This document shows positions 1,881-62,007 of a stretch of 64,000 nucleotides of DNA, piece after piece; the stretch's first letter is position 1, and each line of letters starts with the position of its first letter. The notes under the pieces are model-generated. The model made no database searches. It saw only the letters and a list, made by a program, of their open reading frames with translations, and was not told the DNA's origin. Both the position numbers and the translations under genes were made by a program. Source of the DNA: Eledone cirrhosa (Eukaryota); the NCBI GenBank assembly GCA_964016885.1, contig OZ024743.1, positions 313,782,001-313,846,000 of the forward strand, given 5' to 3'.

Positions 1881-1943
<63 letters not shown>

Positions 1944-5200: not shown

Positions 5201-5612
5201 GTCGCCCACTAACACTAAAAAGCGGGACGTTCCAAGAAAGGTCTCCATACGCCGGAATAAATCAGGTCTCCCTGCTCCTGTCGGCCACTAGCCTGAAAGC
5301 TTGCCCGTCTCCGCTGGTCACGTCCAGCACCACCAACTTACCCTCTGAGTCCAGGAAGATGGCCCGTATGGCGAGATCCAAACCTCTCCGAAAAAGCACA
5401 GCAACTCCTCCCCCCGATCCAGGAGGGCTGGGAGATGCGTACACATCGTAGCCGCCGAAGATCGGTGCGAAGGCCCGTGCTTCAGAGATTCTTGTCTCAC
5501 TGATGTCCACTACATCTATGTTTAGTGGCCTGAGGTCGTTGAGCAGGTGACCCTGCTTCCATGACGACCCCAAGCCACGCGCATTTATGCTGCCTATTCT
5601 GAGTGAGATCAT
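2233..5612 (-). pseudogene. Tx1 copy 1 ORF2 (APE-RT-CCHC), multiple frameshifts
   Basis: ORF fragments 5262-5612, 5018-5248, 4876-5073, 3748-4815, 3455-3775 and 2233-3156 are colinear with the 750-aa ORF of copy 2. Confidence 0.9.
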
Positions 5613-5647
5613 GTTTAAAATGGAGTGGAAAAGATGGGAAAGACCAC

Positions 5648-7570: not shown

Positions 7571-8904
7571 TGACTGGCGTCGCTTGCGAAAGAGAAGGGA
7601 GGGAGAGAGACACATTTAGAGAAGGGAGGGAGAGAGACAATCTTCTCTCTGCTGTAGTGTCGATTGAGGAAGAAGAAAACGGAATGAGTGGGAGTAACCT
7701 ATGAAAATTCTTTTTCGTGACCATGTTTTTTTTTTTTTTAAATAAATATTGGGCACAAAACCCCAATAAGCGGTTATTTAACCCCGAAGGGTCAAATAAC
7801 GGGCAGAAAGTCCCCTCTCACGAGGAGGAGGGTGTTTTTGTCTACAATTTGGTGAAAGTTTTAAACAATTTACAATTGTTATAGCGGTCAAAATTTACAA
7901 TACCTTACAGAGCCGAGCCTCATTCAACAATGGAATTTAATAATAATAATAATAATAATAATATTAATAATAATAGGGAAGAAAACGCACATGGTGGATA
8001 TATATCGTTATGGAATCGCTCCCGTACGTTTTTGATTTTTACTTATTTAAAACAACTGTGATAGAATAATTCTTATTACAAATGAAGTATAAGATTACAG
8101 TTTTTTTACACTCAGCAATCCACAACGCATCACTTTACGGCATAGGGCCCCAATATTTAATATTTAATTTTGGATCATAAGGTTATAGTCGAAAAAGAGA
8201 AAAGTGGCAAAATGGCTAAGTGGACAGACAGGCAAATAATTTCACCACAAACACCACCACCGCCACCATCACCACTACCACGCCAAAAACTCTAGTCAAG
8301 TTACCTCAACTTCTATTTCTAATTCAACTTCAACACCATCACTACAGTACTACGATCACATCACCACCACCACTGCCTCATTATCGCTACCGCCGCTATT
8401 TTCTCCCACTACCTCCTGCTAAGTACTACTAGCACAGCACCACCACTGCCTCATTATCGCTACCGGCGCTATTCTCTCCCACTACCTCCTGCTAAGACAG
8501 GCATCGTAGTACCCCAATAAAAGTGGAAGGCATCAAAAGATATAAATAGACTGATTTGATGACCCGGTCAAAAAATCAAAAAACCAAAAATCAACATCAA
8601 AACAGCACAGCAACAACGAAAAACGTAAAGAAAAGAAAAATGAAAAGAAAAACAGACAGACAGGGAAGGAAAAAAAAACAAAAAAAAAACTAAGTCATAC
8701 ATTCAAACATTACATTACAATGAAACTTATGCTTATTCATTTTTTGGTTTTGTTTACCTATTTATTTGTTTGTTTATTTATGTTCGTCTGCAGCGTGATA
8801 GTGCCACACTAAAATCACCGGGGGGTGATCAAATCACTGGGGGTGATGAAATCACCGGTGGTTATGTAACCATACATTCACCAAACCTCGATTATAGTAT
8901 TTAA

Positions 8905-11900: not shown

Positions 11901-12017
11901 GTATGAGCATAAGCCAGAGTCGGTGATAGAAAACGATCAGGTGAAGGTGCTGTGGCTTGATATTCATTTCAACAAACTTTCCAGTTAATTAACATCAATG
12001 ACTGCGACTCAAAGAAC

Positions 12018-12018
<1 letters not shown>
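8905..12018 (+). mobile_element. R4/Dong-like RLE retrotransposon, family B, near full length but with the RLE domain deleted
   Basis: N-terminal R..WT.E.N..VM.CY..GYRKRM..IW DNA-binding-like region; [43 protein letters not shown]; CRICGEREETIAHIVSEC knuckle near 11735-11795; ends in (TAA)n. 5'UTR boundary not defined. Confidence 0.9.
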
Positions 12019-12053
<35 letters not shown>

Positions 12054-12324
12054 AGTAATAATAATAATAATAATAATAATGTTTTCTTTATTAACCACAA
12101 GGGTTTACATAAAGTAGACATTAAGGACAGTACAGGACAATACAGGACGGTACAAATGGGCATTTCTGCGTGTAAAAAAAACGGAGGTTGAAATAAAATA
12201 ACAAAGAAAAATTCCCCAATAGGGGGGAGACTTCCGAGGGACATTTGTGGAGAAAGCCCATTAAAAGACATCAGTGGCCCTGACCACCAGGGCAAGTGCC
12301 CTCTCCCAGTTTTCCACCTTTAAT

Positions 12325-15300
12325 TTACAGACACATACTCAGAGAAGGCCCATTCTTTCGGGCCATACTTGCTTCTCTCACCCATCTTTCAACAAAATGC
12401 TGGGAAGAGAGCACTTCCCTCTCTACCCTGATTTTCCTTTTCAAATGAAATTTGAAAAAGTTAATCAGGGCATCACCGAAGAGGTAAGTGCTCGTCTTCA
12501 GCCCTTTCAAACGTGTCCACCATACTATCTCTTTCGCCATGGCCACCAAACAGATAAAAACTGCCTGCCCTTCCCGGCTAAAGGAAGAGGGCGGGGCAAT
12601 CCTCACGATGAACTCAGCTGATAGCTGGATCCGTCCTACACGTGACAGCAGATGTTCGACATAAACCCACAAGTCAGCAATGCTCGGACACTGGACGAGT
12701 GCGTGCAGGACGGATTCGTCGCCCTGCGCGCATCTCGGACATGCCCGGCTGACGGCACCTCCATGCCTGTAGAGTTTATCCCGAACTGGCAAAGCTCCTC
12801 GGTAGCACTGCCAGGCCAGGGATTTCTGGAAGTTGTCCATAGGCCCCGGCCAGAAAGTCCTTCCGAAGAGATTGGCTAGTTGATTTTCGCCGACGCCTAG
12901 AGTTTCTCCAAGTACGTCGTCGCTCTTCGCCTCCACTAATCACCTATAGAACGCCAAGGTGGAGTTTCCACCGATCACATTGCCCGATTGGTCGAGGGCT
13001 GTGAGCGCCTGAAGACATTCCAGTCTCCAAGCGCTCCCTCTCGGTCTTCGCTTGACCCAGGACTGCAGCTCCGTCAAGGAGACGAGCTGGGTAAAAACGC
13101 GTCTAGCAAACGGCGACCACACCTGATCACCGTCGAGGGAGAGGTGGAGATGTCGTAGCCTGAGCGCGTGTCTGCGCATCATCAGCCACGGCATGCCCAG
13201 CCCTCCACGTAGCGGGTGTTGACAGCAGATGGACCGCCTGACCATCGGAGCGCGTCCCTTCCACAAGAAGCGAAAGAGCAAACGCTCCAGTGCAGTAAGG
13301 CGGGGCTTAGGACAAGGTACGACGGTCAGGCGGTAGTAGATGACGAAGGCGATGTACGCATTCGCCACCTCCGCTCGACCTTTCAGGGATAGCTTCCTCT
13401 CGGCCCATTTCTGGGTGAGAGAAGCCACCCTGCTCGTCACCTCGTCCCAGTTTTTGTCCGTCTGGAGGTCTGGACCGAACCAGACTCCTAGCAATTTAAC
13501 CGGTCCGTCCAGCGCCCGACGACGCTGTTGGACGGCATGGACCTGCCTCTCCAGGTGCCGAGCTGCAGGCCCACTGACTTTTCCTGGTTGATCATTGCTC
13601 CTGTCACCGCTTCGTATTCTGTTAGTGTAGTGCCGATCGCCTCGATGTGTTTGGCGTTCGACACCACTACGGTGACATCGTCCGCATATGCTGACACGGA
13701 TCTTCCGCATTCTAGTTCGCGCGGGACCCCCCTCAACGTCTCCAGTTTGTACAGTAATGGCTCGAGATTCAATACGTACAATAGGGACGAGAGGGGACAT
13801 CCTTGGCGGACCGAGCGCATGATGTTGAACGGTTCCAAAAGGTGACCGTTCACTCTCACTACAGAGCAGATGTCGCTGTGCATGGCAGCGATCCAGCCTC
13901 TGAAGACGGGCCCAAAGCCAGCCGCCCTCAGGACTGCCGCTAGGTAACGATGGTCGTCCCTATCGAAGGCTTTCGACTGATCTAAATTGATCAAAGACCC
14001 ACCCGTGCCAGGTTCCCTAGCTACCCTCCCTACGATGTATCGCATGAGGTGGAGGTTGTCGTGGATGGATCTGTCGGGAATGGCGCATGTCTGTGCCTCT
14101 CCCACCAGACCACCAACGACAAGCGCCAACCTCTTTGCTAGCACCTTGGCCAAAATCTTGAACTCTGTGTTTAGCAGAGTTATGGGCCGACAATTTACTA
14201 TGTTATCCCCCTTGTTCGGATCCTTTCTCAGCAGCGCCACCGCTCCTCGGCTCACAGAGCTGGGAATTCTCCCGTTCTGTTGCCAGTTGCAGTAGACGTC
14301 CGCCAAGAGGCCTCCGAACAAGTTTGGCATTTGTACGTAAAGTTCATAGGGCAGACCATCCAAACCAGGCGATTTACCCCTTGTGCAACTAGTCATTGCA
14401 TCCCGTACTTCAGCGGTTGTTATCGGCTTTTCGCAACACTCCGCCTCAGTGGCCGAAAGCCGCGGCAGTCCGTCGAGGTAGACACTAAAGTCCATCTCCC
14501 GATCCGGCCCGCCACTGCCCTCGAACAACTGAGCGAAGTGACGCTGAAACGCTTCACACATTTGCCCGGCATCGAGTAGCATGCGCCCGTCGTGGTCCAC
14601 CAAAGACCGGATCGTGGCTTTGTTTCCATGACGCGCCTCCGCCACTCGGGCCCATTGAACGGCTTTCGTCCCCTCGTGTCTGAGAGCACGCACCCTAGCT
14701 CTGAAAACGCAGCCTTCGTGCTTTGCATTGAATAATTGGTCAAGGGCCAATTTCGCCGCAAGTACGTCGGTCGCGATGCCTTTGCTAAGCGCCTCATCTA
14801 ATTTTCTAACTAGTTCTCCCTCTGCTCTATTTTTCTCTATTGCTAAAGTCTTACTAAACCTAATGGACTCTATTCTAATTGCTCTTTTCAGAGCAAACCA
14901 CCACTTGTTGTTGACGATGGCCCCCGTCAACGCCCGCTTAACTAGTTCGCTAATCCGGCCTCTGTTGGCCTTGCGCGCTGGTAAGGACGCGTTTAGCTTC
15001 CAGTAGCCGGGTCCTCGCCTATGAAGCCTATCTAAGTCAAACACACAGATCACGAATTTGTGGTCCGTGTAGCTGACTATCTTGAATTGTTGACAGCCTA
15101 TGCTAGACCTATCTATTTCCCTACAAAATATTCTATCTAGATATGATCTGGATGACCCTATGCGATTTGTCCAAGTCCACATTGGTACATTCGGGAAATC
15201 CATTCGGTACCTGTCAGACAGTTCAAAACGTCTGAGCAGGTTGGTGAGACTCTTGCACCCTCCTTCCCTATCCACTAATCCCACACAATCCCAGCGTGCA

Positions 15301-15740
15301 TCTAAGATCCCGTTCCAGTCCCCCACTAACACTAAAGAGCGGGACGTTCCAAGAAAGGTTTCCAGACGCCGGAAGAAATCAGGCCGCCCTGCTCCTGTCG
15401 GGGCATAGACGGCCACTAACCTGAAAGCTTGCCCGTCTCCGCTGGTCACGTCCAGCACCACCAACTTACCTTCTGGGTTCAGAAAGATGGCCCGTATGGC
15501 AAGATCCAAACCTCTCCGAAAAAGCACAGCAACTCCTCCCCCCGATCCCGGACGGCTGGGAGATGCGTACACATCGTAGCCGCCGAAGATCGGTGCGAAA
15601 GCCTGTGCTTCGGAGATTCTGGTCTCGCTGATGGCCACTACATCTATGTTTAGTGACCTGAGGTCGATGAGCAGGTGGCCCTGCTTCCATGACGACCCCA
15701 AGCCACGCGCATTTATGCTGCCTATTCTGAGTGAGGTCAT
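12325..15740 (-). pseudogene. Tx1 copy 2 ORF2 (APE-RT-CCHC); frameshift near 13500 and stop near 12940
   Basis: ORFs 13488-15740, 12940-13800 and 12325-12936. Confidence 0.92.
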
Positions 15741-15774
15741 GTTGAAAAGGAGTGGAAAAGATGGGAAAGACCAC

Positions 15775-17622
15775 TTACCTTACTTCTCGTAGGGGAAGGA
15801 CGGTTTTTCCATCCTTTTCACTGCTTGTGGCCTCCTCAGGAAGGATGTCCTTATAAATCCTCCTGGAGAGTGCTTGTCGGAAGTCTCCGATGTCTTTGGG
15901 GAATTTTTTGTTTTAGTGTCATGTACGTTTTCTGTGTGATGCGAGTGATTTGTATGTGTGAAGGTGGTGTGAATTTTGGGGTTGTTGTGTAGTCTTTTTC
16001 TGTGATGCTGGTGTTGTGTTGGATGTAGTGTAATAATTGCTTGTTGTTCAAATTTAATGCTGTGTAGTGTGTATCGTTTTGGTTGTTTTGTTTTGTTTGC
16101 GTTTGTTGTGGGTTTGTTTCTGTTTCGCATTTTGGTGACTTTTGTGGTGTAGGTGATGGTGGTGTTGGGGTTAATGATGGTGATGGTGTTGGTGTTTGGG
16201 TTGATGGGATTGGCGATGCTGGTGTGGATGGTGGCATATCTGTCCTAACTTTTTTGTTTCTTAATTTATTTGCTTCCCTCTGTATTTTGTTTTTGGAGGG
16301 GGAAGGAAGAGAATTTTTTCTTTTTTGGTTTCTTTTTTATTTCCGGATATCGTTTCCCACTCCTCGTCGTCACAATCTGTCTCCAGTTGTGATAGGCCGG
16401 GGAGTGGAAAATCCTCCACAGCCGTTAGTTTTGGTTGTGGCGTGGTGGATGGTGTAGGCGCTGGTGCTAGTTCTGAAGCATTGGGTGGTGGTGGTGTTGG
16501 TTTTGCTGGTGGTGTTGGTTTTGCTACTGTTGCTGGGGTTGTTGCTGTTATAGTTGCTTCTGTTGTTGCTGCTACAGTTGTTGCTGCCATCTCTGCTACT
16601 GGTGGTGTTGATGGTTGTGTCACTGGGGTGGGTAGGAGAGGTGGCCTCAACCTTTTAGCCTGAGGGCAGAAAGCCCTTAGGTGGGTTCCTTCACCACAAA
16701 CGACACACCTAGGTCTTCTGCCCTCGACAATTACCGTGAGGTGGCTGCCGTCAGTGAGGTCTATTGCCTCTGGGATCTCCTCAATGCTTTTTTGGTCCGC
16801 TTGGATCAGGAGCTCCATCCCAGATCCGGACCAGTTCTCCTGCTTTTCTTTTGCTATTGCTATTATTTTTGTGTTGGCTTCGATGCCGGCGAGGACAGCC
16901 GCTATTAGCCAGGGAATTTCGATGGCCGGTGGAACGTGGGTCACCCTGATCTTTACGAGTCTCTGGCCACAATAGCTTGGGACGAGTGTGAAGTCGTCAC
17001 TTCTTAATGGGGCCATGGAGTGTTCTCTAGCCTCCTCTGGTGTTTCAAAGAACACGTCCACGATTCCATACTTTTGCCCACGTCTGATGTGGGTTTTTCT
17101 TGCCCACACATGTCCCAAAGCTTTTTGGATTTGGGACTCGGATGCCCGTTCCACTCGGCGCGATTTTACATTTATTGTTCTATACGACACGGTGCATAGG
17201 CGCCGATGCTCCATTTTATTAGGTGGGGGGGGGGACTGACCCTGTACCCATCTTTCTTTACCATTTGTTTGGCATTTTCTAAATCCTCCTGAGTTACCGT
17301 AAATGCTTCGAACTGTTTTGCTACTTTGGCGAAACTGAGGGGGGGGGGGGGTTATAATTTCATTGTTGTTGTTGTTGCTATCGTTAATATTAATTTTAGT
17401 TTCAGTTGTGGTGGTGGTGACGTCAGTCGTCTTTGGTGGGGAAGAGTCCATTTTGCTTGATTTCATTTCGACATCACGAGTTAATTTATTTTTTTCTTCT
17501 TTTGTTTCTGTTGTCGCGGTGGTGGTGGTGGTGGTGGTTGTCGCGGTGGTGGTGGTGGTGGTGGAGGCTTTAACACCTGCAGTCATTGGTAATGGCGGGA
17601 AATGAATGTCTGCCTGAGACAA
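15775..17622 (-). pseudogene. Tx1 copy 2 ORF1; two frameshifts in A-runs; true C-terminus ...KFPKDIGDFRQALSRRIYKDILPEE...LREVR*
   Basis: ORFs 16261-17622 and 15851-16237; manual translation of 15775-15905 aligns with the copy 1 end (KFPNAVGDFR..NRRVYSDIL.EE...QIR*). Confidence 0.85.
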
Positions 17623-18003
17623 ATTTAAAATATTGCTAGTGCTTATATTTTTTTTGTGTTGGCAAACGTAGTAACATTTACAATGGTGGTGTCGGTGTGA
17701 GGTGTTAATTTGTGAGGAAGGCTTTCAGCTGCTTCGTGCAGAGGTGAATTAGCCATTTTTTTCAAAGAAATTTTTTTGATAATAATAAAAGTTTAAATTT
17801 TGGGCACAAGGCCCCAATCTTTTTGGGTGTCCTTTTCGGAAAACAATGTATGTGCGCTTATAAACAGTTAACAATAAAACTTTCCATAAATGACAATTTT
17901 TAACAAACGGAAATAACAAACCTTTGCGGAGCTCACGATGATACGATTTACTACGTAGGTCGCCAATAATAATAATAATAATAATAATAATGATAATAAT
18001 AAT

Positions 18004-20558
18004 GCTTTCTTTATTAACCACAAGGGTTTACATAAAGCAGACATTAAGGACAGTACAGGACAATACAGGACGGTACAAATGGGCATTCCTGCGTGTAAAA
18101 AACCAAAAAACAGAGGATGTAATAATAGAACAATGAAAAAATTCCCCAATAGGGGGGAGACTTCTGTGGGACATTCGTGGAGAAAGCCCATTAAAAAGCC
18201 ACAGTGATCCTGACCACCAGGGCAAGTGCCCTCTCCCAGTTTTCCCACCTTTAATTTACAGACACATACTCAGAGTAGGCCCATTCACTCGGGCCATTCT
18301 TGCCTCTCTCACCCATCTTTCAACAAAATGCTGGGAAGAGAGCACTTCCCTCTCTACCCTGGTTTTCCCTTTCAAATGGAATTTGAAAAAGTTAATCAGG
18401 GCATCAGCGAAGAGGTAAGTGCTCGTCTTCAGCCCTTTCAAACGTGTCCACCATACTATCTCTTTCGCCATGGCCACCAGACAGATAAAAACTGCCTGCG
18501 CTTCCCGGCTAGAGGAAGAGGACGGGGCAATCCTCACGATGGACTCAGCTGATCCGTTCTAGACGCGACAGCAGATGTTCGACATAAATCCACAAGTCAG
18601 CAATGCTCGGACACTGGACGAGTGCGTGCAGTACGGTTTCGTCGCCCTACGCGCATCTCGGACATACCCGGCTGACGGCACTTCCATGCCTGTAGAGTTT
18701 ATCCCGAACTGGCAAAGCTCCTCGGTAGCACTGCCAGTCTGGGGATTTCTGGAAGTTGTCCATAGGCCCCGGCCCGAAAGTTCTTCCGAAGAGATTGGCT
18801 AGTTGATTTTCATCGAAGCCTAGAGTTTCCCCAAGTCAAAGACCGAATCGTGGTTTTATTACCAAGCTGCGCCTCTGCCACGCGGGCCCATCGAACAACT
18901 TTGGTTCCCTCGTTTCTCAGAGCATACGCCTTAGCTCTGACGATGCAACCTTCGTGTTTCGCATTGAAGAAATGGTCTAATGCCATTCTTGCCGCTAGCA
19001 CGTCAGCCTCGTCTAACTTATCTACCCCCCCCCTTCTCTTTTTCTCTAACGCTACTTCTTTGCTAAACTCTATTGACACTACTCTAATCTCTCTTTTGGT
19101 CTCGCTGACAGCAATTACATCCATCTATTGTTGGCGACTCCCCCTGTCAACATTTTCTTAACTAAATTGTTGATCTGGTCATTGTAAGCCTTACCTGCCG
19201 GAAATGACATGTTTAGCTTCCTAACCTACGCGTCTTATCTAGGTCGACTATACAGATCACAAACTTGTGATCTGAATAGGCGACTGTTTCAAAACGTGGA
19301 CAGCTTACACTATTTCTGTCTATTTTCCTAATGAATATCCTCTCTATATACGATCTAGATGACCCTGTCAGACAGTTGGAACTGGCTGATCAGGTTCCTG
19401 AGGCTTTTGCACCCCCTGCTCCTATCGGATACTCCCACACAGTCCCAGCGTGCGTCTAAGATGCCGTTCCAATCCCCCGCTAACAGTAAAGGGCGAGACG
19501 TGCCCAGAAAGGCTTCCAGGCGTCTAAAGAAGTCCGGCCGTCCTGCCCCAGTAGGAGCATAGACGGCTACCAGTCTAAAGGCACCACATTCGTTATTGTT
19601 CACGTCCAGGACCACCAACTTCCCGTCCGGGTCCCGGAAGATCGACCTTACCTCGAGATCCAGGCCTTTCCTAAACAGCACTGCCACCCTGCCTCGCATT
19701 CCCGGCCGGCTAACAGATGCAAAGATCTGATAGTCGTCGAAAATGGGGGCTAGTGCGTGTCGGAAATCCTGGTGTTGCTGACGGCAATTACATCCATTTC
19801 TAGAGACCTGAGGTCATTGAGCAGGTGACCCTGCTTCCAGGACAATCCCAGGCCTCGAACATTTAAACATCCTACTCTTAATACGGCCATGTTGGAGGGT
19901 GAAAAAGAGAGAGAGGAAAGGTTTACTTACCTTCCGGGCTCTTGTGAAGGTCGGGTTGTTCGACCTCCATAGTTAGTGGGGTTTCTTTTGGGAACCCCTT
20001 TAAAAGTCTTGAAGTGGGTTTTACGTTCGGGATTCCCACGTCACGAGGAAAGCTGTCTCGTATTTCTTTGTATAAATCGAGCGACATTTGCACCAGAACC
20101 AAATCTTCCGGCACGCGAAATGTGCTCGATTTAAACATTTCCCCCTCTTTTTGTATATTTTCACTTCGTGTTACGAGGCCAATCAGTTCCTTGTTGGCTC
20201 TCCTGACGACCACGAAGTTTTGTATGTTTTGTTGGTGCGATTTTATTTGTTTGCGTGGCTGTGGTGGTGATGGATTTGTGGGTGTTGTGTCGGTTGTGTC
20301 TGTGTTTGTTGTGAGTGCGGTGTCTGTGGTTTCAGATGTTTGAGTGTATATTTGTTCTTGCGTCTGTTTAGGTTGTTTGCGTTTGGGGGATTCTGGTGAA
20401 GGTGATGGTGGTGTTGATGTGTGTGTTATTGGAGAGATGATTGCGTGGGTGGTGTCTGCGTTTTTTATTGTAGGTGCTTTTGAGCTTTGTTGAGTTTTCT
20501 TTTTCTTTTTGTGTTTCCTTTTTGTATTTTGGGGGATTTGGGTTTTCCCTCATCTTCA
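18004..20558 (-). mobile_element. L1/Tx1 copy 3: chimeric, RT-deleted, 5'-truncated
   Basis: 18004-18836 is near-identical to the 3' ends of copies 1 and 2. It then jumps to a diverged APE region (MAVLRVGCLNVRGLG, AFRLVAVYAPTGAGR, GDWNGILDA) and a third ORF1 C-terminus. Confidence 0.85.
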
Positions 20559-22851: not shown

Positions 22852-23308
22852 ATGTACGTATACATACTTATATTTAAGTAACAGCCGTACTAAGAGTGAG
22901 AAATGAAATTTCGTTTCATTTTTTTGTTTATCGTTCTCGGTACCCCGGCCGATTAACTCACTCGATATGCAAATTAGGCTGCTCAGCCGTTAATATGCAT
23001 AAGGAAAGTATATACTTTTAGACGTTCAACCATCTGGCAGGAAGGTATACGTTGCTGACGATAACTAATAAGCTTGAAGCTGGTACAGCGTTCCTTTGTC
23101 AGTGTTGAACAAATGAACAACGATGGTTGCTAGACACCGTACGGCTTAATTCGGGATGTTTGTTTACAAACACACCGAGTATTATAATAAATGTTCGGTG
23201 AATCCGTACGTACATATGTATATGTGTGCATGTATGTATATATATATATATATATATATGCATACTAATGTACGTCTGTATACATATATGTATGTACGTA
23301 TACATACT

Positions 23309-23313
<5 letters not shown>
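22852..23313 (+). mobile_element. ORF-less 440-bp HHR-bearing monomer with 22-bp terminal direct repeat (retrozyme-like, octamer family)
   Basis: ATGTACGTATACATACTTATAT at 22852 and 23292; homologous to the 61417-61932 unit. Confidence 0.7.
23050..23090 (+). ncRNA. Type I hammerhead ribozyme, degenerate (GAAG instead of GAAA)
   Basis: cgttg-CTGACGA-taact aata agctt-GAAG-ctgg-TA-cagcg; aligns to the perfect HHR at 61596. Confidence 0.65.
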
Positions 23314-37791: not shown

Positions 37792-37910
<119 letters not shown>

Positions 37911-38068
37911 GAGGAGGTTATAGTTCACTTGAAGCATTGTGTAATGAGGTATAAACGTTAGAATATGTGTAATAAGGCTAAGACAATGCAGGTATGGACA
38001 TAGAAAAAAGAATGCAATAGTGAAAGATATTGATGTGAATTCGTCTTTCACCTTGAATTTATTTAAAT

Positions 38069-38108
38069 GTCCTTAATTTTCGAGATAATATCTCTTCTTC
38101 GGAGGGAA
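38069..38108 (-). ncRNA. Putative minimal hammerhead in pLTR (identical copy at 41226-41265)
   Basis: Minus strand: cct-CCGAAGA-a-gagat att atctc-GAAA-at-TA-agg; only 3 bp of stem I. Confidence 0.6.
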
Positions 38109-38511
38109 GTAAAGGTCTCAAACCAGCATCTTTAAATCTCTAATCAAGCCATGCTGACCGGAAATAGTATAGAGTATCTGTTCTAACTTTAATATAAAAG
38201 AATTAAAATTAGGTGGAAAAAGAGTAGTCTCCCCTTAAGAGGGGTTTGTTTATGTTTTGTTTTTGTTTTTGTTTTGTTTTTTTAAATTTTATATGCGTGC
38301 CTGTATATGTGTGTGGGAGAATGCATGAAGGTGTAGGTATGTGGGTGTGTGGGTGTGAGTGTGGAAAGATAGGTATAATCGTAAAAGTGGGGGGTAGGTG
38401 TTGTCTGGTGTTAGAACTGGTATTGTGTGTGTATGTGTGAGAGAGAATAAGTGGAGGTGTGCGCGTGCGTGTGTGTGTGTGGGGTGTGTAAAAATGGGGC
38501 TAGAGGCCCTA

Positions 38512-41094
38512 TCAGGTTATAAATTGGGTGTTGACCTCTAGTCTATTATTGATTGGTGGATGTGTTCTATCTATAATAAGTGCTTCCTTAATTCTAAGAT
38601 TGCCGAGGTTTCTTTCCTTAGTTTCTATCCTAACTGTTATGTTTTTATCGGTGTTTTTGCATTTAACTAGGTGTTTCTTAAATGAGGAAGCGTTAGTATT
38701 GAGGTGTTCTTTTATTCTTATGTGGAGTGGTCTGGTGGTGCTACCTACGTAGAAGTTGTTGAATTCGTCACACTCTAGTCTGTATACTACGTAAGCCTGG
38801 TGGCATAGGTCTGTGTCGTTGATGGGGCAGTTGGCTAGTCTGCAGCAGTTGTCATGTCTGGTGGAGTGTCTCTTAGCCAGCCGTCCGCACAAAGAAGGAC
38901 CCGAGTGGGCCAGTTGAATATCCAGACCCTCTCGTCTGATGGCTCTGCGGGTGGCTGTTGTTGTTTCTTCACTGAAGTGTGGGAGCTTCAGGAAGCAAGT
39001 GTTAGTGCCTCGGGTGTGGTGTCCTCTGTTCTTTCTGGCACGGTTTGTGGTGGATGTCGTGTATCCATTCAGTTTGAATACTTCCAGGAAATGTGTGGTG
39101 TGTGTGTCTCGGTCTCTGGCGTCGGTGCATTTGTTCTTGATACGTGCCAGTTCGTTCTTTATGTATCCGAACTTGGCACCGAGTGGGAGGGCCGATCTGA
39201 AATGTACGAACAAGTCCCTGCTGGCGGATTTTTTATAGAAGCAGGTGTGGATGTTGCCTTCCTCTGTTACCCTGAGTTGGAAGTCCAGCAGGGATAGGGA
39301 TCCGCGGTCATCGGGGTGTTCCATGCTGAACTTTATACTGGCGTCCATGCTGGAGAATGTTGTGTATATTTTCTCTGCCTCCTCACGGGATGATGTAAGG
39401 ATGAGTATGTCATCTACATATCGGGTGAAGAAGGCATGGGAATGGCAGGTGTTGAGGGCTCGGCATTCTAGCTGGTTCATGTAAGTGATGGCCAGCAGGC
39501 CAGAGAGGCTGGATCCCATGGGTAATCCTGTTGTCTGTCTGTATGTGTGGTGGTGGAAGGTGAAGTACGTGTTGTCTACTGTGAAGGACAAAAGCTGGTG
39601 TATGTCCGTCGGGTGGAGGCCGTAGCAGTGGATGTTCTCTGCGACCACGCAGTCCGTCAATAAATCGACAGCTGGGTGAGCGGGGACTGTAGTGTAGAGG
39701 GAGACAACGTCGAGGCTAAAAGCGTATTTATTTAGTTTAAGTTGTTCAGGCTGGAGTTGGTGTAATCTACGTATAACTTCGTCGAAGCTACTGACATGTC
39801 CGGGGAAGGTGGAGAGTAGAGGCTTGAGGACCTGGGAGAGAAGCCAGGAAATTTTGTATAGGGGTCCTTCTATGCTAGAGACGATGGGTCTTATATGCGT
39901 CTTAGTGCTATTCTTGTGGGTCTTGATGAGGTGGTAGAAAGTGGGCAGTCTGCTATTTCTAGTGGTGTAGTTGAGTTTAATTTTATTCGGGAGTTGTCTT
40001 CTCCTACAGATATCGAACCAAATGGAGTTGGTCTGTTTTTCGATTTGGGCTGCGGTCATGTCCGGGATCACTGTGTACAGTTCACTGTCGCTTAGGTGTT
40101 CGAAGGCTATGTTATTGTATGTGGCTTGAGAGATGACCCAGAACTCTTTACCTTTGTCGGATGGTAAGTAAATAAGTTCCTTATTCCGTAGGTTCTTCAG
40201 GGCGAGTTGTTGTGTCCTGGAGAGGTTAGGGGCCATCTTCTTCTGTTTCCGTAAGATGTTAAATACGGAATGTTTTAGTCTCGAGAGTTTTTCTTCCAGC
40301 TCGCGGTTGGCGGGCGGTGGATAGAGTGGGCGATCTAGTTGGTATATCGGGAATCTGGGTGTGGTGGATTCCGTGGTGTTGTTGTCGAGAGTCGATATCC
40401 ATTTCAGTTGGTAGGCAGTCCGACAGAAATTCGTTTCTATGTCGAGCCATAGTCTGTCGTCCAGTCTCTGTTTCAATATGAACTTGGGACCCAGGCTGAG
40501 GAGGTCTAATTCCTCTCGGGAGAGGGATCCTGTCAAGTATGTGACGAGGTGTTTTGCGTCAGGTGTGTTGTTGGTCGGGGTGCCGCTAGGTTCGGTGTTG
40601 GTAACGTATTGTTCGCCTCTGTTGGTGTTTAGCGTTGGGATGTTGTTAAGACAGTTGGCCGTCCTGAGTTTGAGAAATTTTTGTGTTAGGCGTATTTTCT
40701 CGTAGTCTCGGCGGTGGTGGTATGACCTGTCTATAGTGGCGGAGATGACCTTGGACAGAGGTTCTGGGGTTTCAGCGAGTTGTGGTACAAGGCTGGAGAT
40801 AGTCCGTATGTGATGTTGTAGCGTGCGGTGTAGGTGTTGTATGAGTTTTCTTAGGCAGAATTTTTGTATGTAACTGAGTGATCGTTTGAGGCCTGGTGAT
40901 TTGAAGCATGTTGGTAGGTGTAAATTTTTGATGGTTTTGGGAATGATGTTGTTATTCAGGCATCGTTTTAGGAAATTTATTTGGCAGCCGGCTTTGGCGC
41001 GCTTTTCAGATAGCTGGAAGAGTTTCTTTACAGTTGTGAACTGGGCCTGGCTCAGGCGTAATGAAAGGAGGAGGTTATAGTTCACTTGAAGCAT
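38512..41094 (-). CDS. PLE reverse transcriptase + GIY-YIG endonuclease (open frame 38512-41208; first ATG at 41094)
   Basis: PSDKG, FYHLIKTHK, IRPIVS, SLDVVSLYT, GLPMGSSLSG, RYVDD, LSLLD; VVYRLEC..FYVGSTTRPLHIRIKEH..LRIKEALII..P.IN. Confidence 0.93.
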   Translation of the reverse strand: MLQVNYNLLLSLRLSQAQFTTVKKLFQLSEKRAKAGCQINFLKRCLNNNIIPKTIKNLHLPTCFKSPGLKRSLSYIQKFCLRKLIQHLHRTLQHHIRTISSLVPQLAETPEPLSKVISATIDRSYHHRRDYEKIRLTQKFLKLRTANCLNNIPTLNTNRGEQYVTNTEPSGTPTNNTPDAKHLVTYLTGSLSREELDLLSLGPKFILKQRLDDRLWLDIETNFCRTAYQLKWISTLDNNTTESTTPRFPIYQLDRPLYPPPANRELEEKLSRLKHSVFNILRKQKKMAPNLSRTQQLALKNLRNKELIYLPSDKGKEFWVISQATYNNIAFEHLSDSELYTVIPDMTAAQIEKQTNSIWFDICRRRQLPNKIKLNYTTRNSRLPTFYHLIKTHKNSTKTHIRPIVSSIEGPLYKISWLLSQVLKPLLSTFPGHVSSFDEVIRRLHQLQPEQLKLNKYAFSLDVVSLYTTVPAHPAVDLLTDCVVAENIHCYGLHPTDIHQLLSFTVDNTYFTFHHHTYRQTTGLPMGSSLSGLLAITYMNQLECRALNTCHSHAFFTRYVDDILILTSSREEAEKIYTTFSSMDASIKFSMEHPDDRGSLSLLDFQLRVTEEGNIHTCFYKKSASRDLFVHFRSALPLGAKFGYIKNELARIKNKCTDARDRDTHTTHFLEVFKLNGYTTSTTNRARKNRGHHTRGTNTCFLKLPHFSEETTTATRRAIRREGLDIQLAHSGPSLCGRLAKRHSTRHDNCCRLANCPINDTDLCHQAYVVYRLECDEFNNFYVGSTTRPLHIRIKEHLNTNASSFKKHLVKCKNTDKNITVRIETKERNLGNLRIKEALIIDRTHPPINNRLEVNTQFIT

Positions 41095-41323
41095 TGTGTA
41101 ATGAGGTATAAACGTTAGAATATGTGTAATAAGGCCAAGACAATGCAGGTATGGACATAGAAAAAAGAATGCAATAGTGAAAGATATTGATGTGAATTCG
41201 TCTTTCACCTTGAATTTATTTAAATGTCCTTAATTTTCGAGATAATATCTCTTCTTCGGAGGGAAGTAAAGGTCTCAAACCAGCGTCTTTAAATCTCTAA
41301 TCAAGCCATGCTGACCGGAAATA

Positions 41324-41400
<77 letters not shown>

Positions 41401-44238: not shown

Positions 44239-44268
44239 AGATCGAAAGATGGTTAAAATAATTCCAAG

Positions 44269-44339
44269 TATTTTATTATGCGCATTTCAAAAACAAATAT
44301 CATCATGACATGATATCTGCTTTCTCATCAGATAAAATA
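44269..44339 (-). ncRNA. Type I hammerhead (family copies at 47687-47757, 48042-48112 and 48323-48393, all +)
   Basis: Minus strand: tattttat-CTGATGA-gaaagcagatatca..tgatatttgtttt-GAAA-tgcgca-TA-ataaaata. Confidence 0.88.
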
Positions 44340-46629
44340 GGGAGACATGATATGAAGCTTAAAAAACACTTGTGAGCAGTAAAGTTTTAAATCAACATAT
44401 GAAAATTAAATTAAGATGGATGTATGAGATTGGGAAAAAGTACGGGGGGTGGAAAAGGTAAGGAAGAGGAAGAAATAAGAGTAAAGGATGGTGGGGGAGG
44501 AGTATAAGAAGGAAGGATGAGAGAGGAGGAGAGATGGGTGATAGAAAGAGAGAGAGATAGCCTTTACAACTGAGAAAAAATATTGTCTCACAGAAAGAAA
44601 TTAAAAAGCCGTTGGAAGATAATAGATAATTTTAAAGATTTTGAAATTAAAAGTTAATGAAGTTTATGCCTGAAGAAAAAGGAATTAAGAATAGTATGAA
44701 ATTAAGGTTTTATATTGAAGGGTTTAATAATATGTGCGAAGAAAAGAATTTATTAATATGTTTTATTAATATGTATTATTAAAATAAAAATATTAATGAT
44801 AAAAATATTTATTCAATTTGATATTGCCAGCTACTATTCTTCTATTTCGCCTTCACTTCTCAACAACGCTCTATCTTTCGCATTTAAATAATCTGACATT
44901 ACCACAGATGAACGTTACATCATTCTCACCGAAAGAAAAACTATCTTAGAATTCAACAATGAATACTGGACTAGAGCCGATGCTTCCAACAATTTTGATA
45001 TCACAATGGGTGCTTCCGATTCATCGCAATTGACTGATTTGATTGGTATTTTTATTTTGAATTCTTTAAATCGGAAAATTCCTTAACTTCGCGGTGGAAT
45101 TTATCGTGACGATGGCCTTTTTACTATCTTAAACTGCAAGTTAGTTAACCTTAATATTATTAAGAACAATATACGTGATCTCTTTAAGCACCATAACCTT
45201 AAAATTGAATTTGATAACAACGTCAAACTAGTTAACTTCTTGGTTATATCCCTTAATCTTGACACTTGCCTATATTACACTTACCATAAAAACAATGAGA
45301 ATCCCAATTACTATAATAATGCGCTTTCTAAAGCCGGTTATCCTGATAAAATTAAATACAGTAAGGAAACCAATCCTCGAAGGTCTTACAGTAAAATAAT
45401 TAATTATGAACATTCCAATAACTTAAATAAAAGACCTAGATACAAAAATATAATTTGGTATAATGCTCCTTTTTCTATATCTATTAATTATAATATTCCT
45501 AAACTATTCTTTAGGGCCTTAGATAAATGCTTCCCTCCCTCACATATCTATAGTAAAATCTTTAACAAACATACATTAACATTTTCTTATTCCACTACTT
45601 GCAACATCTCTAACATTATCTCTAAACACAACAATAACATATTAAATAATAAATTACATCCTTCCAGTCGAAATAATAGCAGTAGTATACCCGACGTCAT
45701 TGTTAACTCTAGGCTAGATTCTGTAAATTAAAATACGACGTCAAACGTAACTTCGTTAAATGTTCATAATACCAATCTAAATCAGGAAACTATTGTTCCT
45801 ATCGTAAACAACTTCTCCAATCCAATTCCTTCTATAAATAATACTAGGTCACTTGTTAATAACTCTGTTAATTTCTCTAATCGTAATTGTAATTGGCCTA
45901 TTAAAACTAAATGTCCTCTTAATAACCATTGCCTTGATAAAAACTTAGTCTATGAATGTAAGGTTATAACTGATACTAATTCTTTTACCTATTTCGGTTC
46001 CACTTCCACTTCCTTCAAAGCTAGATTTTATAATCCCAATTCGTCTTTTAGATACCAACTTAAAAGAACTAACACGGCACTCTCGGAACTCATATGGTCC
46101 TTGAAAGATAAAAATATTAACTATAACATCTCTTGGAGGAAGGTTTGTTCCGCCTTTCCTTACCTGAATTCTTCCCTATCCAGAACATGTAATCTTTGCC
46201 TAGCCGAGAAATTTACCATTATATTAAATTTCAATTCTATAATAAATAGACGCACAGATTTATTTTCGCTCTGCTTGCATAAATTCCATAGAACATTCCA
46301 TAAAGTATACAGCTAATATCTTAATACCTTACTAGTTTAAAATCCTTTTTACTCAAAGGCTTATATATCTTTTACAAATATACCCATCTTTCTACTTATT
46401 TCAGTATTATATATTATATAATTCTGTGTCATTCTATGTCATTCTATGTCATTCTATGTCATTCTTCTTTATCATTTTCCTTTCTTCCTTTTTTCTTTTT
46501 AATTTCTAATCTCTAATCTGTACTTTTTCTTCCCAACTACTTCTCAATTCATATTATTACTCACCACAACATTATCCATTCTTCCTTCTTTCCTCATATC
46601 ATTGACCATACAAATTATTTGTTTAATAC

Positions 46630-47170: not shown

Positions 47171-47787
47171 CTAAATTCATAACTCATTTATTCTTCTCCT
47201 TCTTTTCACATTATATCCTTAATATCATTAATATTTTTATTTTAATAATACATATTAATAAAACATATTAATAAATTCTTTTCTTCGCACATATTATTAA
47301 ACCCTTCAATATACAAACCTTAATTTAATAGTATTCTTAATTCCTTTTTCTTCATGCATAAACCTCATTAACTTTTAATTTCAAAATCTTTTAAATTATC
47401 TATTATCTTCCAACGGCTTTTTAATTTCTCTCTGTGAGACAACATTTTTTCTCAGCTGTAAAGGCTATCTCTCTCTCTTTCTATTACCCATCTCTCCTCC
47501 TCTCTCATCCTTCCTTCTTATACTCCTCCCCCACCATCCTTTACTCTTATTTCTTCCTCTTCCTTACCTTTTCCACCACCCCCTCACTTTTTCCCAATCT
47601 CATACATCCATCTTAATTTATTTTTCATATGTTGATTTAAAACTTCACTGCTCACAAGTGTTTTTAAGCTTCATATCATGTCTCCCTATTATATCTGACG
47701 AGAACGCAGATATCATCCCATGATGATATTTGTTTTTGAAATGCGCATAATTAAATACTTGGAATTCTTTTAACCATCTTTTGATCT

Positions 47788-47880
<93 letters not shown>

Positions 47881-47882
<2 letters not shown>

Positions 47883-48428
47883 GGAGGTGAGTTTTATTGT
47901 AGTACAATAAAGCAATGCAGATATCGGATGAGAAGCACTCTACAGTTTGTAGGACTGGAGTATACATAATATATATGAACAAAAGATGATTTAAAACTGC
48001 ACTATCCACAAGTGTTTTTTAACCTTCATATTATGTCTTCCTATTTTATCTGATGAAAACACACATATTATTGCATGATGATATTTGTTTTTGAAATGCG
48101 CATAATAACATACTTGGAACTCTTTTAACCATCTTTTGATCTTATATTATATATATATATATAGGAGGTGAGTTTTATTGTAGTACAATAAAGCAATGCA
48201 GATATCGAATGAGAAGCACTCTACAGTTTGTAGGACTGGAGTATACATAATTTATAAGAACAAAAGATGATTTAAAACTGCACTATCCACAAGTGTTTTT
48301 TAACCTTCATATCATGTCTTCCTATTTTATCTGATGAAAACACAAATATTATTGCATGATGATATTTGTTTTTAAAATGCGCATAATAAAATACATGGAA
48401 CTCTTTTAACCATCTTTTGTTCTTATAC

Positions 48429-48433: not shown

Positions 48434-48467
<34 letters not shown>

Positions 48468-48472
<5 letters not shown>

Positions 48473-50414
48473 TAATTTAATATATCTACTAACATAAGCG
48501 CACAGCTGTACGCTAATGCCAGCAAATACACAGGTTATGTCATAGTACCTAGGTGGTTCAATGCAGGAGGATGCAGAACAATAATATAACGGACGTAAAA
48601 TAAGAAAATTCTTAAAAAAAATTTTTTTTTTAAATTTTAACTTACTTAAATTTTCACTCCAACTAATTAGTTTCTGCAATGGGATAAAGACAGTTACGTA
48701 ATCTAACTGTCGAGAATTCATTGCGTCATCAGGGAGTCTATTCTCAGCTAAGTCTCCAGGCAATGCGCGGACACCGGGGACTCATATAAAAATAATAATA
48801 ATTCAGTAGATGGAACAGCTAGCGGGGACTGAATTCCATGCACTGAAATCCTCGCTGCCTCTGGTCAGATGGCCGATTCTAAAGAATCAATCACGTGACA
48901 CAGAGGCTAGTCAGTAGGAATGGGATGGTAAGATGACAGACAACTACTAACACCCCCCCAAAAATTTAGAAGTGGTTTTGGCGGGTTTGCTCGACAAATC
49001 AGTGATTTGGAGATAAATATAGATAATTTAATATATCTACTAACATAAGCGCACAGATGTACGCTAATGCCAGCAAATACACAGGTTATGTCACTGAATT
49101 ATTATTATTTTTATATGAGTCCCCGGTGTCCGCGCATTGCCTGGAGACTTAGCTGAGAATAGACTCCCTGATGACGCAATGAATTCTCGACAGTTAGATT
49201 ACGTAACTGTCTTTATCCCATTGCAGAAACTAATTACTTGGAGTGAAAATTTAAGTAAGTTAAAATTAAAAAAAAAAAAATTTTTTAAAGAATTTTCTTA
49301 TTTTACGTCTGTTATATTATTGTTCTGCATCCTCCTGCATTGAACCACCTAGGTACTATGACATAACCTGTGTATTTGCTGGCATTAGCGTACATCTGTG
49401 CGCTTATGTTAGTAGATATATTAAATTATCTATATCTATCTCCAAATCACTGATTTGTCGAGCAAACCTGCCAAAACCACTTCTAAATTTTTTTGGGGGT
49501 GTTAGTAGGCGTCTGTCATCTTACCATCCCATTCCTACTGACTAGCCTCTGTGTCACGTGATTGATTCTTTAGAATCGGCCATCTGACCAGAGGCAGCGA
49601 GGATTTCAGTGCATGGAATTCAGTCACCGCTAACTGTTCCATCTACTGAATTATTATTATTTTGATATGAGTCCCCGGTGTCCGCGCATTGCCTGGAGAC
49701 TTAGCTGAGAATAGACTCCCTGATGACGCAATGAATTCTCGACAGTTAGATTACGTAACTGTCTTTATCCCATTGCAGAAACTAATTAGTTGGAGTGAAA
49801 ATTTAAGTAAGTAAGTTAAAAATTTGATTTTAAATTTTTTTAAAGAATTTTCTTATTTTACGTCTGTTATATTATTGTTCTGCATCCTCCTACATTGAAC
49901 CACCTAGGTACTATGACATAACCTGTGTATTTGCTGGCATTAGCGTACATCTGTGCGCTTATGTTAGTAGATATATTAAATGATCTATATTTATCTCCAA
50001 ATCACTGATTTATCGAGCAAACCTGCCAAAACCACTTCTAAATTTTTTGGGGGGTGTTAGTAGGCGTCTGTCATCTTACCATCCCATTCCTACTAACTAG
50101 CCTCTGTGTCACGTGATTGATTCTTTAGAATCGGCCATCTGACCAGAGGCAGCGAGGATTTCAGTGCATGGAATTCAGTCCCCGCTAGCTGTTCCATCTA
50201 CTGAATTATTATTATTTTTATGAGTCCCCGGTGTCCGCGCATTGCCTGGAGACTTAGCTGAGAATAGACTCCCTGATGACGCAATGAATTCTCGACAGTT
50301 AGATTACGTATCTGTCTTTATCCCATTGCAGAAACTAATTAGTTGGAGTGAAAATTTAAGTAAGTTAAAATTAAAAAAAAATTTTTTTTAAAGAATTTTC
50401 TTATTTTACGTCTG

Positions 50415-50496: not shown

Positions 50497-50800
50497 ATAT
50501 ATATATATATATATAGATATATACAAACATATATATATATATATATATATATTAATTCAAAATATATATTATTACTATAATAAATAATATATATATATAA
50601 TTTATTATATATATACATAAGGGCGGTGGATTGGGAGTATCGGTAGAGGGACGGACGCCATGCTTTGCAGCACAATTATGTCCCTTTACGGACTGAGTTC
50701 AAATCCCGCCGCGGAGGTTAACTTTGCCTACAAACAGTAGAGTGCTACTTATCCGATATTTGCATTGCTTTATTGTGCTACAATAAAACTCACCTCCTAC

Positions 50801-50879: not shown

Positions 50880-50884
<5 letters not shown>

Positions 50885-51150
50885 ATAATAATAAAATGAA
50901 GACTAAAATCTAAAGAGGGCACGATAAGGAAAATATATATCAAATATATAAGAACCGTAGAGCAAATATTTATTAAAATAACAGATTAAAGTTTAAGCAA
51001 AGAATCGCTGCTTTCACCCTTAACGAGATCTTCTGAAACTAACAAAGTCAATCTGTAAACGCAGAACTGGATATTTCAAAAAACGTTGCAACCGGAGGAA
51101 GACAGGAAGACGATACTTTGGTTCGTGGTAACGTTCGCTATGCAAATAAG
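50880..51150 (-). mobile_element. Abundant short repeat with an HHR-like fold at 50990-51040; other pieces at 23646-23688, 36262-36322, 36437-36560, 55472-55630, 60338-60495, 61085-61240
   Basis: Minus strand: agttt-CAGAAGA-tctc gtta agggt-GAAA-gca..tgc-TT-aaact, extended by cagatt/aatctg; common 3' end ATTATTATTACTA then (TA)n. Confidence 0.7.
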
Positions 51151-55333: not shown

Positions 55334-55627
55334 CAAATAATTCTTTGGACATGCTTTACTCTATAGTATTGTGCTCTGATTATTTAATTTATTAATTCTT
55401 CATTGAGCCACATCGTGAAAAGTTGCCAAAACCCATATATAACAGTGACTTTTTTTAATTGGTGTTTGTGTAAAGATCCCGTTAAGGGTGAAAGCACCGA
55501 TTCTATGCTTAAACTTTAATCTGTTATTTTAATAAATAATAGCTCTACGGTTCTTATATATTTGATATATATTTACACTTATCAAGCGCCCTATTTGGAT
55601 TTTAGTCTTCAAATTTATTATTATTAC

Positions 55628-55750
<123 letters not shown>

Positions 55751-59117: not shown

Positions 59118-59166
59118 TATAGATAGGTAAATATACACGGGTGTGTATGATTGTGTATAGAAGATT

Positions 59167-60299
59167 ATATTAATAAGAGGAATTCCAACTTTGTCTGATT
59201 TACTCGTTTTATTTACAATCCTTTAAAATATATATAATGGTATAATAATGAAATAGTATGATAGAATATTAAATTCTAAGTGCTAATTGAACAAGTACTT
59301 TCATGCTTTCGCAATCTTCAGGTTCATGATATGTGGTGACAGTCGAGTTTGCAATTTTCAACTGTAATGAGATGGGTAAATTTCCTACCTTTTATACATT
59401 TTATACAGAGAAAAGTGGCTCCAGAATGCAAAGCCCTGTAAACTGTATTTCGACCAATCAGTGTGTAGTTTCACTGAATTACTACAGCTGATTGGTTTAA
59501 GCGTCACGGCTGGTTGAGCATGCTAACGATCAATAGTCATACCCACTGGAAATGCACTATCGGAACGTGCACGGGTACACCGTCAACAAATCAGAGACCC
59601 AAATGTCCGTCAGATACCGGTAAGCGGCCACCTGGCAACATGTGGTCAGGGAATATTTATAATATTCCCATTCTACAAAATACACATCCCAAGTGAAATC
59701 AAGAGAAAAATCAAAGAAAAGAATTTTATTGATAAATTCAAACCCAAGCTAAATGAACAATAATAATGCCTAGGGGTATTATTTCTACTACCACTATGAC
59801 CACGACCACTAACAACAACAACAACAACAACAACAATAATAATAATAATAATAAAAGTGATGTTGATGGTGATGATTAATAGAAAATGCTATTTTCATCA
59901 TTTCAAAAAGCAAAACAATTGATACGTTGGGTATGACTATTGGTCGTTAGCATGCTCAACCAGCCGTGACGCTTAAACCAATGAGCTGTAGTAATTCAGT
60001 GAAACTACACACTGATTGGTCGAAATACAGTTTACAGGGCTTTGCATTCTGGAGCCACTTTTCTCTGTATAAAATGTATAAAAGGTAGGAAATTTACCCA
60101 TCTCATTACAGTTAAAAATTGCAAACTCGACTGTCACCACATATCATGAACCTGAAGATTGCGAAAGCATGAAAGTACTTGTTCAATTAACACTTAGAAT
60201 TTAATATTCTATCATACTATTTCATTATTATACCATTATATGTATTTTAAAGGATTGTAAATAAAACGAGTAAATCGGACAAAGTTGGAATTCCTCTTA

Positions 60300-60305
<6 letters not shown>
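59167..60305 (+). mobile_element. PLE 3' fragment (GIY-YIG tail near 59625-59763) with ~380-bp inverted terminal copy; HHRs at 59288-59326 (-) and 60147-60185 (+)
   Basis: HLATCGQGIFIIFPFYK..KRKIKEKNFIDKFKPKLN; 59167-59545 is the reverse complement of 59927-60305; tgaac-CTGAAGA-ttgc gaaa gcat-GAAA-gtac-TT-gttca. Confidence 0.88.
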
Positions 60306-60341
<36 letters not shown>

Positions 60342-60489
60342 ATCCGTTAAGGTTGAAAGCAGCGATTCTCAGCTTAAACTTTAATCTGTTATTTTAATAA
60401 ATATTTGCTCTACGGTTCTTATATATTTGATATATATTTACACTTATCAAGCGCCCTATTTGGATTTTAGTCTTCAAATTTATTATTAT

Positions 60490-60572
<83 letters not shown>

Positions 60573-60899: not shown

Positions 60900-61087
<188 letters not shown>

Positions 61088-61233
61088 ATCCGTTAAGGTT
61101 GAAAGCAGCGATTCTCAGCTTAAACTTTAATCTGTTATTTTAATAAATATTTGCTCTACGGTTCTTATATATTTGATATATATTAATCCTAATCGAGCCC
61201 TCTTTGGATTTTAGTATTCAAATTTATTATTAT

Positions 61234-61285
<52 letters not shown>

Positions 61286-61287
61286 AT

Positions 61288-61341
<54 letters not shown>

Positions 61342-61347
<6 letters not shown>

Positions 61348-61932
61348 GTTAAAAGTGTACATCTACATATGTATACTGAAATACTAGTATGCATATAAAT
61401 ACACACATGTATACATGTTAGAAGCGAAACGAAATTTAATTTCGTTTCGTTATTTGTTTTTATCGTTTCCGCTGAACCGGTGCGTACAATGACTCACGTT
61501 CTATGCAAATTAGTCTGCCCACTACTAATTTTCATAGAAAAAGCATATAACGATATGTGCTTTTACGATTCTCTAGAGAAGCCGGAAGATGGGTTATATT
61601 GCTGATGAGATGTAATAACATCGAAACTAGTCCAATATTCCTGTCTGGCTCTCTGGAGAATAGAGGAAATGTGTTTCCTTGAAAACCCGTATGACTCTAA
61701 AACCCGGTTTGTCTGTTTGGTTACATACAGACTAGCTGGACATTCACAGTAAAGTGTCCAGTGAAAAACTCAGTACATATACATATGTATACATGTGTGT
61801 ATTTATATGCATACTAGTATTTCAGTATACATATGTAGATGTACACTTTTAACTTAATTGTTTAAGCGTCAGTCATACAAAAGTGAGTTAGAAGCGAAAC
61901 GAAATTTAATTTCGTTTCGTTATTTGTTTTTA
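61342..61932 (+). mobile_element. ORF-less 470-bp HHR monomer with 46-bp terminal direct repeat and ~75-bp 5' inversion (retrozyme-like, octamer family)
   Basis: 61417-61462 matches 61887-61932; 61342-61416 is the reverse complement of 61784-61859; (TA)n flanks. Confidence 0.88.
61596..61638 (+). ncRNA. Canonical type I hammerhead (GUC)
   Basis: atattg-CTGATGA-gatgt aata acatc-GAAA-ctag-TC-caatat; all stems perfect. Confidence 0.95.
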
Positions 61933-62007
61933 TATATATATGTATATATATATATATAGAATATAGATATAGATTACAATAATCAAAGTTCAGTTTAAAT
62001 CATTTAT

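Follow-up and report, generated by a model that had tools for sequence, protein, structure and literature searches.

Two short repeats in a 64,000-nucleotide stretch of the Eledone cirrhosa genome (hereafter the window) raise the question of what kind of RNA they were copied from, and by which machinery. A first-pass annotation had read them as two members of one hammerhead ribozyme family, opened at different points of the same circle and terminally redundant, as expected from reverse transcription of a covalently closed or concatemeric RNA. We favor a related reading, to which we assign a probability of roughly 0.6: the two elements, E1 and E2, appear to be non-LTR retrozymes, likely non-autonomous Penelope-like elements (PLEs) inserted by a Neptune-type protein, and likely produced by rolling-circle reverse transcription of circular RNA.

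E1 has two arms and sits in a TA microsatellite (left 61237..61341, right 61934-61971, no strand). Its main arm (61417..61933, plus strand) contains 1.1 units (470 + 47 bp), is 5'-truncated at unit position 1 and ends at a 3' terminus, site B. The second arm is inverted and only 75 bp long (61342..61416, minus strand; unit positions 443 to 369), with its outer end at another 3' terminus, site A. Comparison within the window showed 61342-61416 to be the 100% reverse complement of 61785-61859; this arm lay within the span first annotated, yet was undescribed there. The 47-bp repeat is exact (61417-61463, plus strand, and 61887-61933), its final T being common to the repeat and the TA tract, and is ordinary unit sequence that is read through internally in tandem arrays. 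By the tallies of termini given below, a 74-bp tail (61860..61933, plus strand) lies between terminus A (61859) and terminus B (61933). Circular minimum free energy folding and alignment predict a hairpin in the tail between sites A and B in both families (61423..61451, plus strand). An octamer, ATGCAAAT (61503..61510, plus strand), is likewise common to E1 and E2. A type I hammerhead motif (61584..61655, plus strand) was found by motif scan and by comparison with Rfam HH9, where it scored 32.2 bits, below the gathering score of 52. Its core consists of CTGATGA (61602-61608) and GAAA (61623-61626), stem III has two pairs within a palindromic ACTAGT, and the predicted cut follows GTC at 61630-61632. 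No ORF of 150 aa was found in E1. A TA-flanked repeat of ~155 bp, present in the window at 55474-55629, 60340-60494, 61086-61238 and 50880-51031, adjoins E1 with one copy and occurs in 40 other fetched loci.

E2 (22852..23313, plus strand) is a single 5'-truncated arm of 440 + 22 bp whose 3' end lies at site A and is followed by a TA tract. The earlier values for periods and terminal repeats were confirmed, at 470 bp with 47 bp (given as 46) for E1 and 440 bp with 22 bp (22852-22873 and 23292-23313) for E2. E2 also aligned collinearly along a doubled E1 unit, with a score of 208 against 42 for the best of 100 shuffles, bearing out the shared order of features. Its start corresponds to E1 position ~417, which is 54 nt earlier in E1 numbering and, as annotated, ~40 nt earlier relative to the hairpin. 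The statement that each element carries one hammerhead stood for E1, with its sub-threshold score, and failed for the window copy of E2, where only a remnant is left (23035..23100, plus strand; core CTGACGA at 23055-23061, GAAG, and the triplet GTA at 23083-23085). This core is damaged, having GAAG where the E2 family has GAAA, and the copy gave no hammerhead match in the Rfam comparison; a family copy of E2 gave a weak one (18.9 bits, E 0.017), and the family hammerhead has a U-U at the base of stem II, a point against the reading favored here. One 189-aa frame in E2 lies over its TA tract. Membership of a single family was not upheld, as identity is ~71% over a 120-nt blastn match and, judged by sequence, E1 and E2 are sister families rather than two copies of one family. 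Units of both are low in GC and have strong predicted folds (z -9.4 and -6.9).

Both families are abundant, with thousands of units genome-wide. In the 3.0-Gb, TA-rich assembly, the exact 32-nt hammerhead core occurs 1456 times in its E1 type and 9768 times in its E2 type (the intact family core), and a 27-nt marker of another E1 subfamily 7121 times; each reversed control gave 0. An 84-bp DNA query found no match in the genome, in a search that skips common words. The units form dispersed, non-coding tandem arrays of 1-139 units, the long arrays in the assembly including some of 139, 31 and 15 units. The 139-unit E1 array (L134-L149, C1 95.62-95.69 Mb, ~65 kb) still has its A end and inverted arm, contains block duplications of 7 and 9 units, and is a satellite that arose from a single insertion. 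In old arrays, whole blocks have evidently been duplicated at the DNA level. Contigs from four runs of unspecified kind, compared with part of the unit, were family variants; one run (X4) held one 499-nt self-closing contig at a depth of 2.4, and an array or a circle would look alike there.

The ends of E1 insertions were tallied in two samples, the first of 60 insertions and 100 arms (27 loci chosen because they resemble the window copy and 33 for their position on C1) and the second of 29 insertions and 48 arms (28 loci chosen by position on C1). Overlapping loci of a single insertion were merged beforehand; arms shorter than 40 nt were left out, as were L113 (a duplicate of L112) and the duplicated piece in the middle of L003, and two 5' ends were set aside, one where the end of an array had not been read and one at an N gap. 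Sites A and B, 74 nt apart, accounted for the 3' ends of 141 of 148 arms: 94/100 in the first sample (50 at A, unit positions 441-450; 44 at B, 43-48; 6 elsewhere) and 47/48 in the second. Inverted insertions nearly always paired one end of each kind, with 52 A+B, 1 A+A, 0 B+B and 6 with another end among 59. The first sample contributed 34 A+B pairs of 40, together with 1 A+A, 0 B+B and 5 with another end (binomial p 2e-9), and the second 18 of 19. The 5' ends were uniform round the unit (KS p 0.94, n=99, and 0.98, n=47) and did not accumulate where the ribozyme cuts (3/99 vs 2.3 expected). The cut site was crossed by 82 of 93 arms, and arms also read through the unit boundary; 66 of 99 were longer than one unit, as were both arms in 15 of 40 inverted pairs. 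E2 has homologous 3' sites at positions 22 and 81, where 95 of 120 arm runs ended, and its 38 inverted pairs comprised 22 A+B, 1 A+A, 1 B+B and 14 with another end, these tallies being automatic and noisy owing to the internal TA tract of E2. Inspected flanks showed AT-rich or microsatellite TA targets. At some sites other than TA, target duplications of ~10-17 bp lay beyond the ends of the element (of 16 loci inspected, L011, L089 and L128; also L309).

The window pair can be understood from these ends. E1 ends at B and E2 at A, each having been 5'-truncated independently, and the result is an apparent permutation. Free opening of a circle at different points is not supported, since 3' ends fall at two fixed homologous sites in both families. 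The proposed absence of a fixed end, for which a histogram of termini over genomic copies had been suggested, therefore holds for the random 5' ends and not for the 3' ends. Terminal redundancy was confirmed: because the terminal repeats are internal unit sequence through which arms read, and host duplications are separate and outside, the repeats are not target-site duplications. A circular or concatemeric template, as had been proposed, is required for these insertions, and A>G clusters on the ribozyme strand, discussed below, show an RNA intermediate. The two-element pattern alone is unable to separate a circle from a linear concatemer, and by itself it is ordinary PLE anatomy.

PLE insertions are described as 5'-truncated, with partial tandems and an inverted arm, and as bearing a tail at just one of their ends (Craig 2021, PMC8557442), the tail being defined by two reverse transcription start sites that are alike on both strands in vitro (Frangieh 2024, PMC11167929). 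E1 and E2 insertions are likewise truncated at the 5' end and include partial tandems and an inverted arm, and their two 3' termini delimit a tail that inverted insertions carry at one of their ends. Elements combining reverse transcriptase (RT) and GIY-YIG domains are plentiful in the genome (10596 candidates, 150 scored). Among these are two autonomous families that we label Neptune-type for their ORFs with a CxxC motif before GIY-YIG, after Craig 2021 (PMC8557442). Both have A and B ends of their own, and the loci with both arms read are A+B (L224, L228, L238, L251, L123, L225, L234, L149 and L204). Variant hammerhead-like cores, read by eye, lie near the 3' ends of Neptune-type loci L220, L225 and L230, and the tails of these families are about 40 and 64 nt long. 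No pseudo-LTR homologous to E1 or E2 was found among 50 GIY-YIG loci of the 10596 candidates, nor any RT and GIY-YIG ORF belonging to an E1 or E2 unit.

One locus (L316) connects E1 with such an element. There, an E1 B-arm of 2.7 units leads, by way of 40 nt of E1 and with no spacer, into a Neptune-type PLE that is 5'-truncated and whose arm ends at its A site; the left flank contains no PLE 5' half. This chimera, a new addition of our analysis, is most simply read as one integration event using both RNAs, and, as a single case, it names a candidate helper family for E1. Considering the anatomy and the termini together, we are highly confident that E1 and E2 are non-autonomous retrozymes of the PLE type.

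The window also holds a full-length PLE in a TA tract (37910-41328, minus strand; also given as 38512-41229), with an open 905-aa frame encoding RT and, at its C terminus, a GIY-YIG domain, 262-bp pseudo-LTRs that are 99% identical, and, as judged by eye, a minimal hammerhead-like motif of variant form. It was rejected as a relative of E1 and E2, with which it has no sequence homology. Several other repeats lie in the same stretch. Three related LINE copies on the minus strand (1-20000), encoding RT, AP endonuclease and zf-RVT, each end in a TAA tract and are separated by ~10 and 6 kb. At 48462-50365 and 55018-54769, inverted and tandem pieces of a 454-bp repeat alternate, in what looks like another PLE-type rearranged element. 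A TA-flanked tandem unit of ~263-281 bp (47633-48423, 44239-44394 and 50727-50800) recurs in 17 other fetched loci, and at 59166-60307 a MITE-like structure consists of 382 bp enclosed by terminal inverted repeats of 380 bp that are 98% alike.

We also examined the haplotypes of insertions as a record of their templates. Of the inverted pairs whose arms share at least 100 positions, all 48 had arms that were closer to each other than to the median unrelated arm (median difference 0.6% within pairs vs 3-12% to unrelated arms); they overlap in unit sequence, yet carry the same haplotype. At one locus (L115, C1:62.08 Mb), 2.8 units carry 11 A>G changes on the ribozyme strand, in the hairpin region (unit positions 59-182), and every unit covering these positions has them. 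Compared with L127, and leaving L127's own changes aside, the only other change is one G>T in two of the three units. Since A>G accounts for 12 of 153 single substitutions elsewhere, this cluster looks like A-to-I RNA editing. Three marker patterns of this haplotype are confined to that locus in the assembly (3, 3 and 2 hits). Removal of a whole unit leaves a piece without terminal redundancy, and simple unequal crossover is therefore excluded for the first repeat. The simplest reading is one edited unit copied more than once, which favors rolling-circle copying of an edited circle, a linear concatemer also being possible. This repeated edited haplotype is likewise a new addition here. It is a single case, two of the three units, which have 255T in common, may stem from a later duplication, and the assembly may lack the source array. 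When other copies edited at position 87 were sought, one more hit turned up, and there was no A>G excess outside this locus in the first sample (where variants shared between units numbered 5 for A>G and 4 for T>C) or in E2.

The second edited haplotype, marked by a cluster of three A>G changes, gave 70 hits at 7 loci and represents a very young burst, with arms of 7+13 and 17.5+8 units and 17/17 full units identical at one locus. It is not locus-unique and is thus no proof of a circle; its longest arm (17.5 units) exceeds every sister array in the assembly. In the youngest burst (L289-L290, L309-L315), A>G changes destroy the octamer, so copying does not depend on this motif. Some further patterns were considered and rejected. 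ABAB unit patterns (L097, L034) do not indicate dimer circles, as identical ABAB duplicates in the old, diverged L174 reflect DNA-level duplication and L120 and L302 are not strictly periodic. A 20-unit identical array (ARR30), expected to be locus-unique, was not, and a recurring C>T at the cleavage nucleotide, considered as a ligation scar, is the majority state of a larger subfamily.

The alternative that survives best keeps the PLE machinery and has, in place of the circle, a linear transcript spanning several units of a tandem array; identical units would then derive from source arrays of uniform sequence and from DNA duplication or conversion at a later stage, any circles being by-products. 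We consider this unlikely, though it has real attractions: it explains all of the termini data equally well, arrays of 15-139 units are present and old ones show block duplications, and the second edited haplotype has sister arrays. In addition, one study describes unprocessed RNA as the PLE substrate in vitro, with cleavage dispensable (Frangieh 2024, PMC11167929); these findings, like the absence of a strand difference in start sites in that work, also speak against the reading favored here. Against it, the assembly holds no source array for the L115 haplotype, and the longest young arm lacks an equally long sister array. Nor does the 5' end of the B-arm abut site A (3/36 within 15 nt, 2.4 expected), contrary to the prediction for L1-type twin priming on one linear RNA, which we rejected for these insertions on the same count.

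It is improbable that self-cleaved linear monomers were the template, with RT jumping from the 5' end of one onto the same or another monomer. Such jumping would suit the template switching in L316, the arm of L298 that begins at the cut site, and the array of L315 (contig C744), which passes from one E1 haplotype to another somewhere within unit positions 211-281, a stretch that begins with the cut site. However, 5' ends show no excess at that site, ~135 units contain zero indels at positions 206-224, and a single haplotype is seen in 48/48 arm pairs and nearly all arrays. A DNA-level satellite, a rolling-circle DNA element or a SINE with target-site-duplication repeats is very improbable despite the satellite-like behavior of long arrays, given the strand-specific A>G clusters, the 5' truncation and PLE tail, the true target duplications outside the element with terminal repeats made of internal unit sequence, and, for a SINE, uniform 5' ends in place of a fixed one.

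A circular template is, in our judgment, probably the main route for E1 and E2. By analogy with published retrozymes, tandem copies would be transcribed, self-cleaved and ligated into circles of ~430-470 nt. A PLE GIY-YIG endonuclease would then cut AT-rich DNA, in keeping with the TA targets and short outer duplications observed. One target strand may prime cDNA at A and the other at B on the same RNA species, as the A+B pairing and shared haplotypes suggest. Each cDNA, as observed, spans 0.1 to 17 units, crosses the cut site and stops anywhere. The two 5' ends would be joined head to head, or one arm would be tiny or lost, and some arrays may grow afterwards by the DNA-level duplication observed in old arrays. 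A bolder version, to which we would give somewhat less than even odds, has a PLE dimer priming both strands on one ribozyme-made circle, at A and at B, with the RTs rolling and strand-displacing for up to ~17 turns and A-to-I edits serving as barcodes.

Transcribed hammerhead tandem repeats include newt satellite 2, which contains an octamer motif, and Schistosoma Sm-alpha. E1 and E2 are new members of the already known non-LTR retrozymes. Like those of metazoans (PMC7229834; bioRxiv 10.64898/2026.07.22.740005), they consist of tandem units that encode no protein, measure a few hundred bp and bear a single type I hammerhead apiece; they are dispersed as anything from one unit to an extended array, their GC is low and their predicted fold strong, and PLEs occur in the same genome. 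Their units are slightly longer than the 150-450 bp given by Cervera and de la Pena 2020 (PMC7229834), and, set beside retrozymes with RNA circles, they are known from genome sequence alone. EN+ PLEs, Neptune-type and Poseidon (PMC8557442, PMC11167929), resemble E1 and E2 in 5' truncation, partial tandems, an inverted 5'-truncated arm, a one-end tail, microsatellite or AT-rich targets, two start sites and a hammerhead. Unlike them, E1 and E2 lack an ORF and have tails of 74 or 59 nt rather than 30-40. The E1/E2 core is a complete CUGAUGA/GAAA, in contrast to the variant cores in PLEs of the same genome. Non-autonomous Chlamys PLEs such as MRC1 are likewise PLE derivatives and form head-to-tail multicopy insertions but lack canonical hammerheads and have a 3' end resembling that of their partners (PMC8557442).

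Papers on animal retrozymes propose circle-templated reverse transcription and PLE mobilization (PMC7229834, PMC7761336, bioRxiv 10.64898/2026.07.22.740005), and for Xenopus Li, Clavereau and Pollet 2026 (bioRxiv 10.64898/2026.07.22.740005) present PLE co-occurrence and a pseudo-LTR phylogeny. Both ideas are still proposals in the literature consulted. The literature searched, which included few subscription papers, gave no report of termini, A/B pairing, inverted arms or edit-traced copies in retrozymes. How tailed, inverted PLE insertions are made is an open question in the literature, and the near-strict rule of one A and one B end constrains the integration mechanism. Young and abundant families such as E1 and E2 lend themselves to countable genomic tests, and with edited haplotypes as markers a single RNA molecule can be followed over repeated copying. 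If the bolder version above is true, this genome would be a fossil record of circles as the retrotransposition template of animal retrozymes, with a Neptune-type PLE as helper.
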